Assembly: GCF_964194155.1 (NCBI RefSeq) | Contig: NC_135902.1 | Span: forward strand, 53,382,001-53,446,000 | Source: Cetorhinus maximus | Lineage: Eukaryota | Reading direction: 5' to 3' | DNA: 64,000 nt | Part shown: positions 9,536 to 60,789 of the stretch, piece by piece | Position numbering within the stretch: the stretch's first letter is position 1 | Layout of the letters: each line of letters starts with the position of its first letter | Translations under genes and position numbers: made by a program | The notes under the pieces: model-generated | Told to the model about the DNA's origin: nothing | Seen by the model: the letters and a program-made list of their open reading frames with translations, nothing else | The model's database searches: none

Positions 9536-9705
9536 GATAAAAGCAAAATACTGCGGATGCTGGAAATCTAGAACAAAAACAAAAATACCTGGAAAAACTC
9601 AAATGAGTTCTGATGAAGAGTCATTCGGACTCGAAACGTTAACTGTATCTCTCTCCGCAGATGCTGTCAGACCTGCTGAGTTTTTCCAGGTATTTTTGTT
9701 TTTAT
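9536..9705. mobile_element. Penelope-derived fold-back insert with hammerhead
   Basis: Inverted arms 'aacaaaaatacctggaaaaactca' and 'tgagtttttccaggtatttttgtt', homologous to the Penelope terminus at 60036-60138. Confidence 0.85.
9606..9644 (+). ncRNA. Minimal type-I hammerhead ribozyme (subtype A)
   Basis: AGTT-CTGATGA-A-GAGTC-attcg-GACTC-GAAA-cg-TT-AACT: canonical core, 5-bp stem II, stem I AGTT/AACT. Confidence 0.85.
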
Positions 9706-9799
9706 TCTCACGTCTTACCCTGTCAAGCCCCCTCAGAACCTGATATGTTTGAATAAAATTTCTTATCTCCATTCAAACTCGATCTTCCAAGCCAAATCG

Positions 9800-14037: not shown

Positions 14038-14329
14038 AAGGACTCAAGCATGGGACATCTTGTCCTATATGGTTCAGTAAAGTTAAACTTTTGGGGCACC
14101 CTAAAATAAACTGACTCCCACTATGCAGTGTTCTTGCCGTTAACAAGACAACTGCATTATGTTTCTATGATGTGAGGCCTAATACATTGATGGTTTGGAA
14201 GTTACTGCAGAACTATTGTCCAATCTTATATAAAAGCAAAATACCGCGGATGCTGGAAATCTGAAACAAAAATAAAAATTGCTGGAAAAACTCAGCAGGT
14301 CTGACGGCGTCTGTGGAGAGAGAGACAAG

Positions 14330-14368
14330 AGTTAACGTTTCGAGTCTGTATGACTCTTCTTCAGAACT
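14330..14368 (-). ncRNA. Minimal hammerhead ribozyme (subtype A)
   Basis: Reverse complement reads AGTT-CTGAAGA-A-GAGTC-ataca-GACTC-GAAA-cg-TT-AACT. Confidence 0.82.
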
Positions 14369-14727
14369 AAAGAGAAGTAAAAATGTGGTGAAATATATAC
14401 TGTTTAAGGGGGGGTGAGGCAGGTGAAGCTGGATAGAAGGCCAGCGATAGGAAGGTCTGGGTCATGCTTGCGGACAGACCGAAGGTGTTCTGCAAAGCGG
14501 TCACCCAGTCTGCGTTTGGCATAATGCTCATCCTGCTTTCTGCTCTTAATGTCACCATTAGCACCTCCTTTAGCCAGTCTCACCACCATCAACACCCCCT
14601 CGACCTTCTGTTTGTGACATCTTTCACAATCTCTCCTTTGCCTCTACCTATCGCTGGCCTTCTATCCAGCTTTACCTGTCCCACCCCCTTAAACAGTATA
14701 TATTTCACCACATTTTTACTTCTCTTT

Positions 14728-14766
14728 AGTCCTAAAGAAGAGTCATACGGACTCGAAACGTTAACT
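14728..14766 (+). ncRNA. Degenerate hammerhead (core CTAAAGA)
   Basis: AGTC-CTAAAGA-A-GAGTC-atacg-GACTC-GAAA-cg-TT-AACT; G5 mutated to A. Confidence 0.6.
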
Positions 14767-16149
14767 CCGCCTTTCTCTACACAGATGCTGTCAGACCTGC
14801 TGAGTTTTTCCAGCAATTTTTGTTTTTGTTTCTAATGTCCAACCTTCCTGTGTGTAAACCCTGTATAACGTGTATCTCTTCCTATTCTGTCACATTACCC
14901 TTCCAAAAATAAGCATAGATTGCTCAGAGGTGGTTAGCAGTGTTTCATGAATCCATTTATTCATCTTTAGAGAAAGTTAATCCATATTTAATTGATTCAC
15001 AAACAAAGCATGTTGACCACAAAGGTGAGGTGGGATCTAGCAACTGCCTTTTTTCTTGGTCTTCATTTTCCATGTTTCCAGTTTATGTTCAAGTATTGAG
15101 TTCTTTTTGTGCTAAACCTGGGCTAGGATTGAATTGCGCCCAACTGTGATGGCCCATGCAGTCACATAGACTCGCATGTGAAGAGTAGCCATTGGGATAA
15201 GATACTGGAGGGTGACTGCTGCTACTGGAACAGTGCCTCAGTGAGGAGTCAATTACTTCCAGGGTGTTACAGTGAAAAAAAGTAGCAAAATAAGAAACAT
15301 TCTTGCTGTTTAATGTCGGTAGCATCCAGATATAAAGTAGCTTGTTATTTCAGTGCTTTGTGTAGATAGTAACAGTGAAGATCACCAATAACCATCTAAC
15401 AATCTCTGGACATCAGACCAGAGCCAGTGTCTTTAATTCACACTATCATGGAACCAGGCTCTTTTGATTTTTAGCTGTTGTAAGTTTGGGAGCTAAGTGA
15501 TTTGAGTTCACAGCCATAAGTGTATGAGGCTACTAGAATTGGCAAAGTGTGAAGATCGAAGAAATAGAGGAAACAAAGAAAGAGATGGATGGAGGCCCAG
15601 GGTGGGGTCGAATGCGGGAGATAACAAAGCTGACAATGTTTGTAAATAACAGAAGCGGAGATGTTAAAAGGCAGTCTGAATTCATTTTGATTTAGTGTGG
15701 TTCTATTTTTTTCTTTTCCATTTTCTTGTATGATTCCCTTTGCATTAGGTGCCCTATCGTACCTTGGCCATATGACTTGTTTTTAAGAAGTTATCCTGAA
15801 GGTGCCAGCAGGCGATTCAACTTTGGAAAGAGTCACAGCCTGATGGACTTTCTGCAGGGCTCACTGATGGTGATGAGTGGCTGCCAACCCCTTCTTGATG
15901 TGTTTTTCTCTCTCTCTCTACCCATGGATGTTTAGATCAGTTGGGGCACCCTAACTCTTTTACAGCTTATGATATTCAACATAATATCTGCCCTCAATTC
16001 AGATACATCATGAATGTACAGACTACCTGTTGAGTGTGTTATTCTAGCTCTGTCAATTGGTATCAGCTTCCAGTGATCATAGTTTCTTGTTCTACACTTG
16101 CATTTTCTTTTGAAGTTAGAATAATCTTTCAAAACCTTTTAAACAGACC

Positions 16150-18561: not shown

Positions 18562-18641
18562 TAAGTCAAGTGATCAGAGTGGGAACTACTTTCTAGGATA
18601 TATTCTAAATTAATATATTTCTTGCGCAACAAGGAAAGAAG

Positions 18642-18811
18642 TATGAAATGAGAACAGAAAATTCCGGAAATACTCAGCGGGTCAGGCAGCATCTGTAGAG
18701 AGATAAACATTCTCTCCACAGATGCTACCTGACCTGCCAAGTCTTTCCAACAGTTTCTGCTTTTATTTCAAATTTCCTGCATCTGCAGTATTTTGCTTTT
18801 GTATTAGTGAG
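18642..18811. mobile_element. Penelope-derived hairpin insert lacking the hammerhead
   Basis: Arms 'gggtcaggcagcatctgtagagag' and 'ctctccacagatgctacctgacc'; TSD aaggaaagaag at 18631-18641 and 18812-18822. Confidence 0.75.
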
Positions 18812-19033
18812 AAGGAAAGAAGCTTTGCTTGATTTAGTTCTGTGAAGTGTGAGAGGTGATGTGCCAATGTAGTTAGGTTCAGTGTCAAATTGGAAAAGAA
18901 TAATGGTTCAGAGATGAGAACATTGGACTGGAAAAAGGAAAAAAAAATCAGCAAGAGTGTGAGTTCAAGTCACATTCCCACAGAAACTAATGTGATGAAA
19001 ACTGGTGTCTGCAGTGAGCGTGGTTTGAAAGCC

Positions 19034-19213
19034 GGAGAAGAGCAAAGTTGACGTTTCAAGTCCTCATGACCCTTCAACAGAACTAAGTAGAAATAGGAAA
19101 GGGGTGAAATATAAGCTTATATCCACCGATTCTGCCAGACCTGCTGTGTTTTTCCAGGTATTTCTGTTTTTGTTTTGGATTTCCAGCATCCGCAGTTTTT
19201 TGTTTTTATCTCT
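19034..19213. mobile_element. Penelope-derived insert with 5' inversion and hammerhead
   Basis: Perfect 14-bp TSD gtggtttgaaagcc at 19020-19033 and 19214-19227; near-identical to the 56690-56855 terminus, in two orientations. Confidence 0.9.
19046..19084 (-). ncRNA. Minimal hammerhead ribozyme (subtype B, CUGUUGA core)
   Basis: Reverse complement reads AGTT-CTGTTGA-A-GGGTC-atgag-GACTT-GAAA-cg-TC-AACT. Confidence 0.7.
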
Positions 19214-36330: not shown

Positions 36331-37046
36331 GTAAGAATTTTTTAAAATATAATTTTAAGTTAGAATGTAAAATACAGTAAATATTGTTTGGAGCTTAAAG
36401 TTCAAAGTCAGCAATATGTTGCCAAATTCATGCCATGCTGAGGAATGGAGTGGCATATGTTTATACCTTGTGACCAAGGCGAATATTTGTGTTTCCCAAT
36501 GGACAGAATTACAAATGCAATCCCCAAAACCATCAGTTAAAGTACAAGAAGTGAGTATGTGGCAGCCTTCTTTTTCATAAGATTATGGTTTGAGCCTCGG
36601 TGGTCAACTCTGTCCTAAGCATCGCCTGGTGTGGCTCAGGAGTCTTACTATGGCATGGAAGTCTCTGCCACACTTGCTGCAGAGGAAGACAGTAGGCTGA
36701 GAGGTGCACGATTCGCTGGCCCGTTTTGTCTGTGTCCTCTTCTCAGCCAGCTGAGCTTTTTATTTCTGCTCGCCCCTCCCAGTATTATCCCAAACAGTCA
36801 GCCTCCAGAGGTCACAGCCATCAGCGATTGTCTCCCAGTTGCCAGTTTCATTATCTGCCATCTTCATATCTCGCTTGCGGGTGTCCTTGTAAAAAAGGTC
36901 GCAACACCGAGGAGATCATGACCCAATGGTTGGTTCGCTGTACAGAAGGTGTTTGGGTATATAGCCATCATCCATCCAATGAAATGAAAACAAAAATAGC
37001 TGGAAAAACTCAGCAGGTCTGACAGCATCTGTGGAGAGGAAGACAG

Positions 37047-37085
37047 AGTTAACGTTTCGAGTCCATATGACTCTTCATCAGAATT
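37047..37085 (-). ncRNA. Minimal hammerhead ribozyme (subtype A)
   Basis: Reverse complement reads AATT-CTGATGA-A-GAGTC-atatg-GACTC-GAAA-cg-TT-AACT. Confidence 0.8.
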
Positions 37086-37092
37086 CTTCATC

Positions 37093-37131
37093 AGTTCTGA
37101 TGAAGAGTCATACGGACTCGAAACGTTAACT
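37093..37131 (+). ncRNA. Minimal hammerhead ribozyme (subtype A)
   Basis: AGTT-CTGATGA-A-GAGTC-atacg-GACTC-GAAA-cg-TT-AACT. Confidence 0.85.
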
Positions 37132-38579
37132 CGGTATTCCTCTCCACAGATGCTGTCAGACCAGCTCAGTTTTTCCAGCTATTTTTGTTTTTGTTTCAGA
37201 TTTCCAGCATCCGCAGTATTTTGCTTTTATCCATCCAATGAACATGGCTGAGCCAGCGCAGACATCCTTGGTTTAGCAGTGAGTGTATGCTGATGGAATT
37301 AGCAAGCTCCAGGATCTCTTACTAGCCAAGAGATGCCAAGGATACACCTGAAGCAACAAAGGTGGAAACTGTTCAGTCTTGGGTTGGCAGATTCACAGTT
37401 TGGTGTTCTCGGTCAGGTTGCTGTTGTTTCACACTCTTTTACACAGCTTGGATATTACAGCTGCAGCTTCTGAGATTTCAACATCAAGTGACAGACTGCT
37501 GGTGATTGTGGAGACTAGAGACGTGAAGCTATCAATAACCTCCAACGTCACATTGTCAGTGCTGATAAATGGTGGCAACATCCTGGACCATGACATTTGT
37601 CTTCCTGATGGTCAAACCAAACGTTTTACAGACATGAGAGAGTCTGTCCATTTGCTGCCATCCCTCAATATGGTTTGCTAGTGCGACCTCATCAGCAGAG
37701 AGCAACTCTGATGAGGACTTGGTGTAGCTTTGTCTTGGACCTTAGGTGGGCAAGGCTGAAGAGCTTTCTATCAGTTCTGGATGTAAGTAGACACCCTCTG
37801 TAGATGACCTGAAGGCATATGACAACAACAAAGAAAAGAATATGGCAAAGAGCGTCAGTGCCAGAACACAATCCTGTTTGACCCTGCTGTGAATTTCAAA
37901 GGGTGCAGACAATGGCCCGCCATAGCTGATCTTATCATCATGTTGTCATAGAAAGAGGAGATCACATTGAGCAGCTTTGGCGAGCAGCAAGGTTTTGCGA
38001 GTAGCTTAAAAACTGCCTCTGCTCATATGGTTGAATACCTTGGGGAGATCGAAGAAGGCAATATATAATGCGATATAATATATATAATCGTTTGTTCATG
38101 GCATTTCTCTCACACCAGCGGAATGAGAAGATTGTGTCAGTTGGAGATCTTCCAGTTCTAAAATTTCACTGGGATTCAGGATAGATGCGTTCAGCCAAGA
38201 TTTGCAGTCTGGCGAGGGCAGCACAGGCAAATACTTGTCCCACGGTGTTCAGCATGGAGATGCCTCAATAGATGGGCTTTGTTAAGCTCCTCCACTGTGG
38301 GTTTGATATCCGGCTCTGCCATGACAAGTAGGCTTTCTATGGTGTCTAGAGTTTCCTCGGTGACAGTGTTGTCCCTAGACTACAACTTAAGGTAGTGTTC
38401 CATCCATCTCTCCAACTGTTTATTGCAGTCAGTGATGGCAGTTCCCTTTGTTTTCAATGGAACCATTTTCTTTGCTGATGGACCTATTGCCTTTTTGATC
38501 CCTTCATACATGCCCCTGACAAAAGAAGTGAGTACTAATGACGATTTAAACTGTCTGTCCAACAATGCACGTGGCATCT

Positions 38580-53840: not shown

Positions 53841-55576
53841 TAAATGTATAACATTTCAACACAGTGACCTTGGACGCTATTCACCCTCTCTCCTGGTCCC
53901 AGCTGATGTCTAGAGTGAGCAGCAGAAGACAAAAATAGTTGGCCCTCGATTTTGTTTTGTCACATTCTCAGCTGGAACAGCTGTATTTTCATTGAATTAT
54001 TGCGTGATGTGTATCCTTTTTTGGACTTCCATATGAAATTTATTTACAATTTGTATTGGAAATAAATTGGGCATGAAAGGCAGTATTTAAAGCAAAAGCT
54101 TTCCAGCTTATTAAAAACTCTGTAATTTGTGTGTCATTTGTACCGAATCAAATCTGCCCCCGACTCAATTTCAAACAAAATGCTTTGGACTTAATCCTGC
54201 ATCCTACGGGTTATTGCAGAAGTAGTGAAGCCTCTGGAAAGAAATTACTAATGCAGTGTGCAAATTAAGTTTTAAACATATGAAGAATAACATAAACGTT
54301 TCTGGTACATTAGCTTGAAACGGAGATGGTTTGACGGGACTGGGTCATACGTTTCCACTTGTGCGAGCACTCCCAAGCGAGCGGAAGAACACTGCGCTTT
54401 TCTGGTTTTACTGTAATATTGAGGAGATCAGGCGTAAAGCAGCGGTTTTTCTAATGAATTTGGTATAAACTGGCCTGGGGGAAAAGATTCATTTCAATTG
54501 AAACGTATTTTGTTTAATGAAATGATGTTTTTTTTAATTTTTTCTGATTATCGCAAGAACACTGTGGAGTATTTGCTGTTCCATGCACAATGTAATGTAG
54601 GATGACACTGCGAGCCAGAAGCTGGGTTGGATTTTGAAGTACTTGCTTCATGTTTCCACTCATCTGAGGACAAACTGTACATGATGGTAGAAAACTAGAA
54701 ATGTTCAGAAATTGTAGGACCCGAAACCCCCCTTTGCTAATTTGAAAGGTAACATATCACTACTTCCTGTTCCTGTTTAGTTTATGCTAAAATGTATAAT
54801 TTCAGGAAATTCAGCTCCTAAATGACATAGGTCTGAAAGTATTCCATGATATAAAAATTCTATGGATCTCCTGGAACACAACACAAGTTTTATTACTGTA
54901 TGAAAATTTTCACAGTACTGCTCCCACTCATCATGTTGCTGCTGCTATCCTGACACTGCAAAAATGGTGGTTTCCAAACCCATCCCATTCCCTCTTTGCT
55001 ATTGTTGAGAGTAGACATGAATGTAATAAAAGGTGGATAAGGTCTGGGGAACTATCAAGCTGTCAAGTAATTTAAATCCCCTGCTCTTTAAATTTGGAAA
55101 AAAGCCTGGTGTGTGTCTCAGTTGAAATAAACCCGTGCTTGCAACTTCAGTAGCTGTTTGTTGCCATAAGCCTGAGGGTTATCATTATAGTATTAGTACT
55201 GTTTGACTGCTTGCACAATCACTATCACAGTGGGGGGTCTTGTAAGTTCAGTTTGTTTGACAGTCCCAAGTGGTTTTAGAGGGATTAGATGTCTTTGAGG
55301 TGGGGCTATGAATACAAATGTTTGTTTACATAAGGGATTAAGTACATGAAGGGATTTAAATGTATTGAATGGGCTTTATCAACAAATGTTTTTTTAATAT
55401 AGTGAAATCTGTAGTAGATACTACTTTATTTTATTCCATCTCAGCATGGCTCCTAAGGTATGCCCATGGTGTATACTGGGTGAGTTAGCATGGAGGATGT
55501 AAGGCACTAAGTTGGCAAAGGGCACTATAAAAAGCCACGGGGATGAGTAGGGGGTCATGGGTAGGCATGAGTTGGC

Positions 55577-56323
55577 ATGTCCTCCTTCTTCCTTAACTGA
55601 GGTTTTCCACCCACGGTAGTTGACAGGGCCCTCAACCGTGTCCGGCCCATCTCCCGCGCATCCGCCCTCATGCCTTCTCCTCCCTCCCAGAAACATGATA
55701 GGGTCCCCCTTGTCCTCACTTATCACCCCACCAGCCTCCGCATTCAAAGGATCATCCTCCGCCATTTCCGCCAACTCCAGCATGATGCCACCACCAAACA
55801 CGTCTTCCCTTCACCCCCCCTGGCGGCATTCCGTAGGGATCATTCCCTCCATGACACCCTGGTCCACTCCTCCATCACCCCCTACTCCTCAACCCCCTCC
55901 TATGGCACCTCCCCATGCAAACGCAAGATATGCAACACCTGCCCCTTCACTTCCTCTCTCCTCACTGTCCAAGGGCCCAAACACTCCTTTCAAGTGAAGC
56001 AGCATTTCACTTGCATTTCCTTCAACTTAGTCTACTGCATTCGTTGCTCCCAATGCGGTTTCCTCTACATTGGAGAGACCAAACGCAGACTGGGTGACCG
56101 CTTTGCAGAACACCTTCGGTCTGTCCGCAAGCATCACCCAGACCTCCCTGTCGCTTGCCATTTTAACACTCCACCCTGCTCTCTTGCCCGCATGTCTGTC
56201 CTTGGCTTGCTGCATTGTTCCAATGAAGCTCAACGCAAACTGGAGGAACAGCACCTCATCTTCCGACTAGGCACTTTACAGTCTTCCGGACTGAATATTG
56301 AGTTCAACAATTTTAGATCTTAA
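55577..56323 (+). pseudogene. 5'-truncated Penelope ORF C-terminus (Cys linker plus GIY-YIG endonuclease)
   Basis: CKRKICNTC, NLVYCIRCSQCGFLYIGETKRRLGDRFAEH and GLNIEF. Confidence 0.92.
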
Positions 56324-56723
56324 ACTCCCTCCTCCATCCCCACCCCCTTTCCGTTTCTTCCCCCTCCTTTTTGTTTTTTCTAATAATTTATATAGAGTTT
56401 TCTTTTCCCACCTATTTCCATTATTTTTAATGTATTCCACCGATTATTTATCTATACCTTTTATGCCCTTTTAGTCTTATTTCACCCCACCCCCACTAGA
56501 GCTATCTGTACCTTGCTTGTCCTGCTATCCATTCTTAATTAGCACATTCTTTTAGATAATATCACCACCTTCAACACCTCTTTGTTCTTTTGTCTGTGAC
56601 ATCTTTTGGTTATCTCCTCCTATCACAGCTTGCTTGTCCCAACAACCACCACCCCCCTTCTCTCTTCACCTCCCTCCCCCAACTTAAATCAGCTTATATT
56701 TCACCCCTCTCCTATTTTTACTT

Positions 56724-56762
56724 AGTTCTGTTGAAGGGTCATGAGGACTCGAAACGACAACT
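56724..56762 (+). ncRNA. Hammerhead (subtype B) with mutated cleavage triplet
   Basis: AGTT-CTGTTGA-A-GGGTC-atgag-GACTC-GAAA-cg-AC-AACT; GUC changed to GAC. Confidence 0.62.
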
Positions 56763-56887
56763 GTACTCTTCGCCGATGCGGCCAGACCTGCTTTGTTTTT
56801 CCAGGTATTTTTTATTTTGGATTTCCAGCATCCGCTGTTTTCTGTTTTTATCTCTGTGTTTAATTGACTGCCACTTCTCTTCAAGAA

Positions 56888-59637
56888 ATGCCTACCTTGA
56901 AGAAGTTTTGTTTTACTCTCCGTCAGGATTTTCGTATCTCTCTTCTGCCTTGTTCACCTTCATTGCTTTCTATTTCTCTCCTGGTGTTTGACAAGGTGTT
57001 TACTAAAACCCGCTTTCACAGCCATATTTCCTTTCTCGGTGACTGTCTCCGTCTCCGACTTACCCCACGTGGATTTCAACTGAAATTCCATCCCTCATGT
57101 TTCGAACCCACCCAGGATTACAGGTATCTCCGGGACATACAACACTCCTCAGACTGCTGTTCCCGTCGCATTCTGAGATCCACACTCAGTGCCATGCGCT
57201 GCCATATGAACACATTCCACTTCTCCCTCCAGCAGCACCGCCGCACCCTTTTCCAAAGCTGCCCGTGCCCCCAGTTTCATTTTATTCTTCGTCTCATCCA
57301 ACACCTCAACAAGAAACTTTTTCTCTTTCTCTCAAGTGCTAAGGAACGCAAGCTCCAACAACTCATCGACACCAACACCCATCCAGGACCCTCCAACCCT
57401 GCCTGTCCATTTGTCCTCACCCCATCTTCCAATCCCAGCCCCGGCCGGGTATTCACTATACCTCCTGACCTTCCCCTCTCTGACGCTGAACGTTCAGTGC
57501 TCAGCAAAGGACTTAGTTTCATACCCTTACGCCCTCATCTCAATGAATTTCGGGCTCAGCACGATGCTGAACTCTTCTTCCGCTGCCTTCGTCTCCGAGC
57601 TCACTTCTTTGGGCAGGAGTCCTCTCCCCGTTCAACGGATCCTTTTACCCACCTCCAATATTCTCCCTCCACCTGGACCCCTCCCTCTGGATTCTTACCT
57701 TCTCTTGATCTTTTCATAGAGAACTGTTGGCGTGACATTAGTCGTCTCAATTTCTCTGCTCCTCTCACCCATTCTAACCTGTCTCTCTCTGAAATTACTG
57801 CACTCCGTTCTCTCAGGTCCAACCCTAACATTGTCATCAAACCCGCTGACAAGGGTGGTGCTGTTGTTGTCTGGCGCACTGACCTCTACCTCGCGGAGGC
57901 TGAGCGTCAACTCGCAGACACTTCCTCCTACCTCTCCCTGGACCATGACCCCACCACTGAACATCAAGCCATTTTTTCCAGGACTGTCACTGACCTCATC
58001 TCCTCTGGAGATCTTCCTTCCACAGCTTCCAACCTGATAGTCGCCCAACCTCGGACGGCCCGTTTCTACCTCCTACCCAAAATCCACAAACAGGACTGTC
58101 CTGGCAGACCGATCGTGTCCTACCCCTGCCCCACGGAACTCATTTCTTGCTATCTTAACTCCCTTCTCTCTCCCCTTGTCCAGTCCCTTCCCACCTACAT
58201 CCGTGATTCCTCTGACACCTTACGTCAGATCAACAAGTTCCAGTTCCCTGGCCCCAACCGCTTCCTCTTCACCAAGGATGTCCAATCTCTCTACACCTCC
58301 ATCCCCCACCAGGATGGCCTGAGGGCCCTTAGCTTCTTCCTTGAACAGAGGCCCGAACAATCCCCATCCACCACTACTCTCCTCCGTCTGGCTGAACTTG
58401 TTCTCACACTGAACAATTTCTCCTTTAACTCCTCTCACTTCCTCCAAATAAAAGGTGTGGCTATGGGTACCCGCATGGGCACCAGCTATGCCTGTCTCTT
58501 TATGGGGTATGTGGAACATTCCTTGTTCCAGTCCTACTTCGGCCCCCTCCCAAAACTCTTTCTCCGGTACATCGATGATTACTTCGTTGCTGCTTCATGC
58601 TCTCGTCGGGACCTGGAAAAATTTATTAATTTTGCTTCCGATCTCCACCCCTCCATCATTTTCACCTGGTCCATCTCTGACACTTCCCTTCCCTTCCTTG
58701 ACCTCTCTGTCTCAATTTCTGGTGATAGACTGTCCACCAATATCCATTACAAGCCTACCAACTCCCACAGCTACCTCGACTACAGCTCCTCACACCCCGC
58801 TTCCTGTAAGGACTCCATCCCATTCTCTCAGTTCCTTCACCTCTGTCGCATCTGTTCTGATGATGCTACCTTCAAAAACAGTTCCTCTGACATGTCCTCC
58901 TTCTTCCTTAACCGAGGTTTTCCACCCACGGTAGTTGACAGGGCCCTCAACCGTGTCCAGCCCATCTCCCGTGCATCCGCCCTCACGCCTTCTTCTCCCT
59001 CCCAGAAACATGATAGGGTCCCCCTTGTCCTCACTTATCATCCCACCAGCCTCCGCATTCAAAGGATCATCCTCCGCCATTTCCGCCAACTCCAGCATGA
59101 TACCACCACCAAACACATCTTCCCTTCACCCCCCCGACGGCATTCCGTAGGGATTGTTCCCTCCGTGACACCCTGGTCCACTCCTCCATCACCCCCTACT
59201 CCTCAACCCCCTCCTACGGCACCTCCCCATGCGAATGCAAGATATGCAACACCTGCCCCTTCACTTCCTCTCTCCTCACCGTCCAAGGGCCCAAACACTT
59301 CTTTCAAGTGAAGCAGCATTTCACTTGCATTTCCTTCAACTTAGTCTACTGCATTCGTTGCTCCCAATGTGGTTTCCTATACATTGGAGAGACGAAACGC
59401 AGACTGGGTGACCGCTTTGCAGAACACCTTCGGTCTGTCTGCAAGCATCACCCAGACCTCGCTGTCGCTTGCCATTTTAACACTCCACCCTGCTCTCTTG
59501 CCCACATGTCTGTCCTTGGCTTGCTGCATTGTTCCAGTGAAGCTCAACGCAAACTGGAGGAACAGCACCTCATCTTCCGACTAGGCACTTTACAGCCTTC
59601 CGGACTGAATATTGAGTTCAACAATTTTAGATCTTAA
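56888..59637 (+). CDS. Penelope-like polyprotein (RT plus GIY-YIG), one 1-nt frameshift near 59136
   Basis: ATG at 56888; IKPADKGG, FYLLPKIHK..PGRPIVS, DVQSLYTSIP, GVAMG, RYIDD, LPFLD; GIY-YIG lies in the shifted frame ending at 59637. Confidence 0.93.
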
Positions 59638-60035
59638 ACTCCCTCCTCCATCCCCACCCCCTTTCCGTTTCTTCCCCCTCCTTTTTGTTTTTTCCAATAA
59701 TTTATATAGATTTTTCTTTTCCCACCTATTTCCATTATTTTTAATGTATTCCACCGATCATTTATCTATACCTTTTATGCCCTTTTAGTCCTATTTCACC
59801 CCACCCCCACTGGAACTATCTGTACCTTGCTTGTCCTGCTATCCATTCTTAATTAGCACATTCTTTTAGATAATATCACCACCTTCAACACCTTTGTTCT
59901 TTTGTCTGTGACATCTTTTGGTTATCTCCTCCTATCACTGCTTGCTTGTCCCAACAACCACCCCCCCGCCCTTCTCTACCCCCGCCCCCCTCCCCTTAAA
60001 CCAGCTTATATTTCACCCCTCTCCTATTTTTACTT

Positions 60036-60074
60036 AGTTCTGTTGAAGGGTCATGAGGACTCGAAACGTCAACT
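60036..60074 (+). ncRNA. Minimal hammerhead ribozyme (subtype B), intact GUC
   Basis: AGTT-CTGTTGA-A-GGGTC-atgag-GACTC-GAAA-cg-TC-AACT. Confidence 0.75.
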
Positions 60075-60789
60075 GTGCTCCTCTCCACCGATGCTGCCAG
60101 ACCTGCTGAGTTTTTCCAGGTATTTTTTATCTTTTTTTATGAGTTGGCTCTAAGTTGGCCTGGGGGTATAAGGGCCCATGGGGTTGGGTTGAGGGACATA
60201 GGTTGGCATGGAGGGTATGAGGAGGGTGGGGGAAACGAGGTGGCATGAGTTGGCACAGATGGGGCATAGGGAGTATGTAGGAAGTGAGGGCTTTACTGTT
60301 TTTATTACAACTGGGATAAAGTCCCAGAGCACCAAGGTGGGCCTCGAAAACAGCACAAAACCGCACGCCTCAGCACTTGGCAACCTTTGTGGCTGCCCCC
60401 GAACTGTATTCAGGAACAGTGGGTCCGACTCCAGTTAGCACCTGTACCCCCCAGAATGAAAATCCAGCCAGTCAGGGAAGTTTCTCTCAAGTTTCTCTTG
60501 GAGTCGGGAAATTTCCTTACTCTGTGCACCCAGCCCGGGAGTGAGAATTTGAGCCCATATTTGGAACATTTAGAGAATATTTGCTGCCTACTTTGAAAGG
60601 GCTTTGATACATTTGAGAAGATTCTAGGATTTGTACTCAGTCCTGGGGAGAAAGTCACAGAACTGTACTTCCGTTTTTTAATAATAAAAAGGAGGGTGAG
60701 GAAGAAACTGAACCATATTTTTAACTTGATGAGAGCCATATCTGATATAAATGTAAGCAACTTACTTATAGAACTTATGAAGGACACAG

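Follow-up and report, generated by a model that had tools for sequence, protein, structure and literature searches.

Head-to-head ends of a Penelope-like element in Cetorhinus maximus: a palindromic insertion and its probable assembly at the target site

Inverted Penelope-like insertions and their ribozyme-bearing relatives

The head-to-head inverted architecture of endonuclease-bearing (EN+) Penelope-like elements (PLEs) is already published. According to the available parts of the reports cited here, such insertions display an inverted 5'-truncated copy, a tail of 30–40 bp on one side only, a target-site duplication (TSD) and palindromes at the junction (PMC8557442, PMC3846280). The formation of the inverted repeats and one-sided tails has been called undefined (PMC8557442), and self-priming, in which an antisense template folds back on itself, has been proposed to account for the inverted repeats (PMC3846280). 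Pairs of PLE hammerhead motifs on opposite strands, lying 100–700 bp apart, have been noted, and single minimal motifs showed no cleavage in vitro (PMC4209133). The protein of the Anolis PLE Poseidon, a predicted dimer, cuts and extends both strands in vitro, with RT initiating at two sites, one on either side of the tail; inverted pairs are not addressed in the available text of that study (PMC11167929). Two further systems bear comparison, namely the non-LTR retrozymes, which are head-to-tail tandems with at least two hammerheads on the same strand (10.64898/2026.07.22.740005), and viroid-like RNAs with paired ambisense ribozymes, which adopt a rod-like fold with one motif per polarity (PMC10162972).

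Here we describe a palindromic insert at positions 36984–37228 of a 64,000-nucleotide stretch of Cetorhinus maximus DNA (the window). In common with Adineta Pen2a, and with inverted EN+ PLE insertions generally, it contains head-to-head 5'-truncated pseudo-LTR (pLTR) ends, a one-sided tail, a TSD and a palindrome at the inverted junction. Unlike Pen2a, its arms are trimmed to the hammerhead edge and no ORF is left; the most frequent TSD length in Cetorhinus pairs is 14 bp, compared to 8–10 bp in Pen2a, and the statistics of Cetorhinus copies favour two primed cDNAs over the self-priming proposed for Pen2a (PMC3846280). The insert resembles non-LTR retrozymes in being non-coding, PLE-derived and equipped with a type-I hammerhead (10.64898/2026.07.22.740005; PMC4209133), but it carries one motif per strand, head to head, and two or more tandem units with same-strand hammerheads were not found in it. 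With viroid-like RNAs it shares the rod-like fold and the single motif per polarity; it differs from them in being linear chromosomal DNA flanked by a TSD, with no circle-forming layout, and in that its ribozymes are mutually complementary within a duplicated arm (PMC10162972).

The insert and its source family

The insert is 245 bp long and is bounded by identical 14-mers at 36970–36983 and 37229–37242. It interrupts an older dispersed repeat (36588–36969 and 37243–37700) whose copies are ~80% identical and whose minus-strand translation resembles what we take to be the end of an RTE-type LINE ORF. In 11/11 fetched copies of this host repeat, which represent empty sites, the 14-mer is single and the copy is colinear with both flanks, and the duplication thus arose with the insertion. 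These empty sites bear out an initial annotation of the locus, made from its letters alone, which had described a 245-bp insert with a perfect 14-bp TSD.

The tail-less arm (36984–37085, minus strand) extends from the hammerhead 5' edge to element position ~102–106. The tailed arm (37093–37228, plus strand) is likewise a 5'-truncated pLTR end, and makes the insert asymmetric, as a 34-nt PLE tail (37195–37228, plus strand) is present on this arm only. Over 104 nt the inverted arms are 93% complementary (93/100 positions in a second comparison). They were already annotated as meeting at a duplicated centre, and this is indeed a 12-nt direct repeat with one mismatch (37070–37081 and 37083–37094), the second copy of which forms the junction and is likely a templated re-copy made during the joining of two cDNA ends. 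Matches to the arms occur at several further sites in the window, including both pLTRs of the element at 56724–60138 (77–85%). Judged by these matches, the insert is two 5'-truncated PLE pLTR ends placed head to head, and it combines all of the features of an EN+ PLE insertion (pLTR origin, head-to-head inverted 5'-truncated copy, one-sided tail and TSD).

The element at 56724–60138 (plus strand) is a near-complete PLE of a sister subfamily, comprising a pLTR, an 815-aa RT frame, a GIY-YIG frame past a frame break, and a second pLTR; its Pfam matches to RVT_1 (E 3e-5) and GIY-YIG (E 2–5e-4) both lie slightly under the cut-offs. The sister-subfamily translations contain CCHH in the endonuclease and a CX2-5CxxC motif in the RT–EN linker. 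Both features belong to the definition of the Neptune and Nematis clades (PMC8557442), and the linker motif points to one of these as the probable affiliation, a clade different from that of Anolis Poseidon (PMC11167929). A truncated partial tandem copy, 95% identical, precedes the element at 55573–56818, and the hammerhead core of the sister-subfamily element (window 55573–60138) reads CUGUUGA.

Hammerhead motifs and their predicted fold

The insert carries two minimal type-I hammerhead motifs, one at 37047–37085 on the minus strand, with one mismatch in helix I, and one at 37093–37131 on the plus strand, where the predicted cut falls after 37127 at a GUU triplet. They lie ~7 nt apart on opposite strands, as compared with the 100–700 bp reported for dual motifs (PMC4209133). 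Helix I has 4 bp, helix II has 5 bp and helix III is reduced to the palindrome ACGU. As in the pLTR hammerheads of metazoan PLEs, helix I is short, an extra base precedes helix II, positions 15.2–16.2 are palindromic and there is no loop 3 (PMC4209133); the core boxes and helices I and II of the minimal type are all present. The predicted triplet is GUU in the subfamily of the insert and GUC in the sister subfamily. The motifs had been annotated as canonical CUGAUGA hammerheads, of which the coordinates and strands stand while the term canonical does not: the loop of helix III is absent, Rfam returned no hammerhead match in the window at E ≤ 1, and the motifs are of the minimal, dimer-type PLE form.

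Folding predictions give each of the two transcripts a hairpin of about −164 to −168 kcal/mol, with one MFE at −163.6 kcal/mol. Forcing helices I and II to form within the palindrome costs 49.9 (plus) or 50.6 (minus) kcal/mol, compared to 2.8 or 9.5 kcal/mol in a lone arm. The expectation that a long hairpin would compete with ribozyme folding was therefore sound, the hairpin being predicted to win by ~50 kcal/mol. A single minimal hammerhead per strand allows at most one cut per transcript. It has no partner on its own strand with which to form a dimer, and there is no further cut that could release a unit, so that no unit-length RNA or circle is expected. In the 202 arms compared, the G of the GAAA box is retained in 164 and other CpG columns are retained in 161–178; there is no sign in these arms of selection on the ribozyme, the GAAA-box G appearing to decay as other CpG sites do. 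We predict that the hammerhead motifs at 36984–37228 are passengers of the pLTR, inert at this locus. Such stubs mimic ambisense-ribozyme rods and hence call for caution in searches for ribozymes and viroid-like RNAs.

Genome-wide copies and the assembly of inverted pairs

The 15-nt core motif has 11,281 exact matches in the genome (1 for a control sequence) and a 35-nt motif has 1,654. Short head-to-head pairs, defined by a gap of up to 40 nt, occur at at least 262 loci (524 core matches, 4.6% of 11,281), and an inverted arm was found upstream in 8/30 random copies. Our comparison set consists of 101 distinct loci out of the 262 or more short pairs, all selected for intact cores. A TSD-like repeat of at least 10 nt with at most one mismatch brackets 95 of the 101, again with a mode of 14, and all 95 are different. 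There are 37 junction types among the first 50 of the short pairs. Two types recur, at 32 and 31 loci (30 of each fetched), the commonest (32 loci) forming a perfect hairpin whose loop is 2 nt long. The exact junction of the insert at 36984–37228 was found once in the genome, with 4 further loci within 2 mismatches. Among 12 loci near this junction, 3 were set aside (one divergent, two with other inserts) and 9 are of its type genome-wide, with the tail on the right in 4, on the left in 4 and on neither side in 1. Among the first 50 loci, none joins two arms that start at position 1 or 2 in a perfect palindrome without a loop; joins of this kind may be purged, or may drop out during assembly.

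Exactly one arm is tailed in 101/101 pairs. Across these loci the tailed arms end at positions 134–139, and the tail-less arms mostly at 94–106, with a spread of 37–115. Arms within one locus differ less than arms taken from different loci (0.051 vs 0.083, 0/2000 permutations), agree at diagnostic sites (e.g. 76/81 vs 55.9 expected) and share rare alleles (27/146, at 17 loci), which suggests that both arms usually come from one template. Loci L005, L022 and L136 (also L186 and L187 by eye) have arms with different subfamily markers, which suggests that a minority of events involved two RNA templates or gene conversion. Either arm may extend further upstream. In 50 short pairs the tailed arm leads in 22, the tail-less arm in 14 and the two are equal in 14, while of the 8 inverted pairs among the 30 random copies, three have the longer reach on the tail-less side (L057, L067 and L073) and three on the tailed side (L058, L061 and L070); L063 is mixed, and the locus edge interrupts L074. 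In L073 the lead of the tail-less arm amounts to 555 nt. A tail-less arm could seem to extend further if the loop between the arms had flipped, or if deletions had occurred, after the insertion.

Many arms begin at the hammerhead. The start lies at most 6 nt from the hammerhead core in 9/30 random copies and more than 60 nt upstream in 17/30, by a measure that undercalls L065, which does extend upstream; among the short pairs, a set selected for short gaps, 91/100 arms start at the hammerhead edge. L063, L067, L068 and other copies contain a branch-point-like motif, a polypyrimidine tract and an AG ending at the 5' edge of helix I. This site coincides with the hotspot of 5' truncation, and in Drosophila virilis Penelope the end of an intron likewise precedes the hammerhead 5' edge (PMC4209133). 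A spliced-template origin of the hotspot was considered and rejected, there being no upstream exon common to the truncated copies. A cap-derived G at the hotspot was also unsupported (an eye count of the 100 matches listed out of 140 gave 47 G to 53 A; p 0.31 against 42% expected). Microhomology at the target junction of the tail-less arm is 1.33 vs 0.47 nt (75/92 loci), in a comparison that uses a one-direction null and in which the TSD caller may overshoot, and we give it no weight.

We think it probable that the locus represents two truncated PLE ends joined between the 14-bp TSD and assembled on the spot, rather than copied from an earlier palindrome. As to how, the set of copies speaks for a pair of cDNAs, each primed from one of the nicked target strands, rather than for fold-back, because there is one tailed arm in 101/101 pairs, the template is mostly shared and either arm may extend further upstream. 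In the mechanism that we propose, to which we give an even chance of being correct, a dimeric RT-endonuclease primes both nicked strands on one RNA from start sites that bracket the tail, and both cDNAs end by run-off where the RNA has its 5' end, at the hammerhead edge. The GIY-YIG endonuclease would nick both target strands ~14 bp apart, and each target 3' end would prime its own cDNA, usually on one RNA, the distal start site giving rise to the tailed arm and a site ~34 nt upstream to the tail-less arm. Both cDNAs would often halt at the hammerhead 5' edge, likely an RNA 5' end, and their 3' ends would be joined with small microhomologies, slips and re-copies, so that a few junction types would recur by convergence. 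At 36984–37228 one end apparently slipped back on a microhomology of 3–4 nt, and a few bases were copied a second time ahead of joining. In L1 twin priming, too, both nicked strands prime on one RNA, leaving an inverted 5' part. Twin priming inverts without duplicating, whereas in the scheme proposed here both cDNAs would copy the same stretch and so produce a palindrome. The in vitro behaviour of Poseidon offers parallels to our proposal in the two tail-bracketing RT starts, the cutting and extension of both strands and the predicted dimer (PMC11167929). Among the points against double priming are that the in vitro study, in its available text, saw no strand bias in the choice of start site (PMC11167929), that the tail-less ends are spread over 37–115 instead of lying at one site, and that the arms of L005, L022 and L136 are discordant.

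The main rival to double priming is that the second arm arose by self-priming, the cDNA or an antisense template folding back at a short palindrome and then being copied; this would leave the de novo origin of the palindrome unchanged. It is the published reading (PMC3846280), and would be in keeping with both the perfect hairpin of the commonest junction (32 loci) and the rare variants that the arms share (27/146 rare alleles, 17 loci). We nonetheless consider fold-back unlikely. A tailed cDNA that folds back cannot yield a tail-less arm reaching further than its partner, as is seen in 14/50 short pairs and in L057, L067 and L073, and a tail-less cDNA that folds back cannot yield a tail; moreover the hairpin junction is found both ways round (16:14), and some pairs of arms come from different subfamilies. 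We hold it distinctly improbable that two insertions occurred independently, with the second targeted to the first or its immediate neighbourhood, or that an inverted duplication arose later at the DNA level. The PLE protein is able to nick its own pLTR (PMC11167929) and a few loci do have discordant arms, but a single TSD pair brackets the whole unit, the one-tail rule is strict (101/101) and the concordance of arms at diagnostic sites is far above chance.

It is also conceivable that the palindrome is itself a unit of propagation, either an independently amplifying, non-autonomous MITE-like retro-unit or an ambisense viroid-like RNA with a genomic copy. The initial annotation had raised the MITE-like option, likened the layout to the ambisense-ribozyme rods of viroid-like RNAs and retrozymes, and named a repeated by-product of Penelope 5' inversion as the alternative. 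Copies sharing the identical central junction with different TSDs were to be the mark of amplification. Some junction types do recur with different TSDs, and the insert does have one ribozyme motif per polarity and a strongly folded rod; the exact junction of 36984–37228 is unique, however, and the recurrence is convergent rather than clonal, because the orientation of the tail is random and sharing a junction does not bring loci closer together than they are to other loci. In copies of one composite, junction and tail should always be oriented in the same way, yet the two recurrent types are found at 16:14 (p 0.86) and 18:12 (p 0.36) and the type of 36984–37228 at 4:4. Arm distances were compared, after exclusion of CpG columns, at 81 of the 101 loci, those with a short arm extending to position 90. 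At these loci, the distances between like arms and between unlike arms are equal in each of the 4 junction classes; pairs of loci with the same junction are separated by 0.082 vs 0.083 for others, a value as low being obtained in 405/1000 shuffles; and arm-specific differences are shared at 0.053 vs 0.055 per pair (same-junction vs other), with maxima of 1 vs 2. Several subfamilies are represented per junction. The 81 loci thus display no MITE-like descent from a single composite, which would have left junction, orientation and arm-specific variants in common, the amplifying unit is refuted for the loci tested, and no copying of a whole hairpin was seen among them. For an amplifying or ambisense unit, excision would in any case be impossible with one minimal hammerhead per strand, single minimal hammerheads are uncleaved in vitro (PMC4209133), and the core positions decay as other CpG sites do. 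Sequence of this family is abundant in assembled contigs (RNA status guessed, mostly with other species labels), and none of those listed spans the junction together with flank, which weighs in neither direction. We regard such a unit as very improbable, and it is the by-product of Penelope inversion that is upheld, with arms derived from pLTRs and many independent junctions.

The locus at 36984–37228 is, in itself, ordinary debris of a very abundant retrotransposon, and its value lies in the set of copies to which it belongs. From the strict presence of one tail per pair, the common template and the way in which each arm extends upstream independently of the other, we predict that inverted products in the existing in vitro system (PMC11167929) need two nicks and two start sites. 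If true, double priming would supersede the self-priming model in print and account for the tail being on one side only, and the stubs would be a record of the PLE integration mechanism. We did not find a double-priming reading of PLE inverted repeats in the literature searched, a search whose scope excluded most subscription papers.

The window contains other inverted PLE insertions. A longer one at 14230–14832, of the insert's own subfamily, is flanked by an imperfect TSD of ~13 bp. Its tailed arm, on the minus strand, extends from element position +136 to −81 and then from −564 to −644 (endonuclease ORF), and its tail-less arm, on the plus strand, from −203 to +103; each arm has sequence absent from the other, and the spacer contains a fragment of the endonuclease ORF. 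This insertion had been annotated at 14228–14831 as having the same two-strand layout, which is correct for the layout, with boundaries at 14230–14832, although the core on the plus strand is degenerate. Three further inverted PLE stubs lie at 9537–9706, 18638–18800 and 19033–19207, and in each of them one arm has the tail and the other lacks it. The sole Rfam match, to mir-196 at 18674–18740, falls on the second of these stubs and is under the gathering score, and we consider it spurious. The hammerhead is absent from 18638–18800 and is kept in only one arm of 9537–9706 and of 19033–19207.
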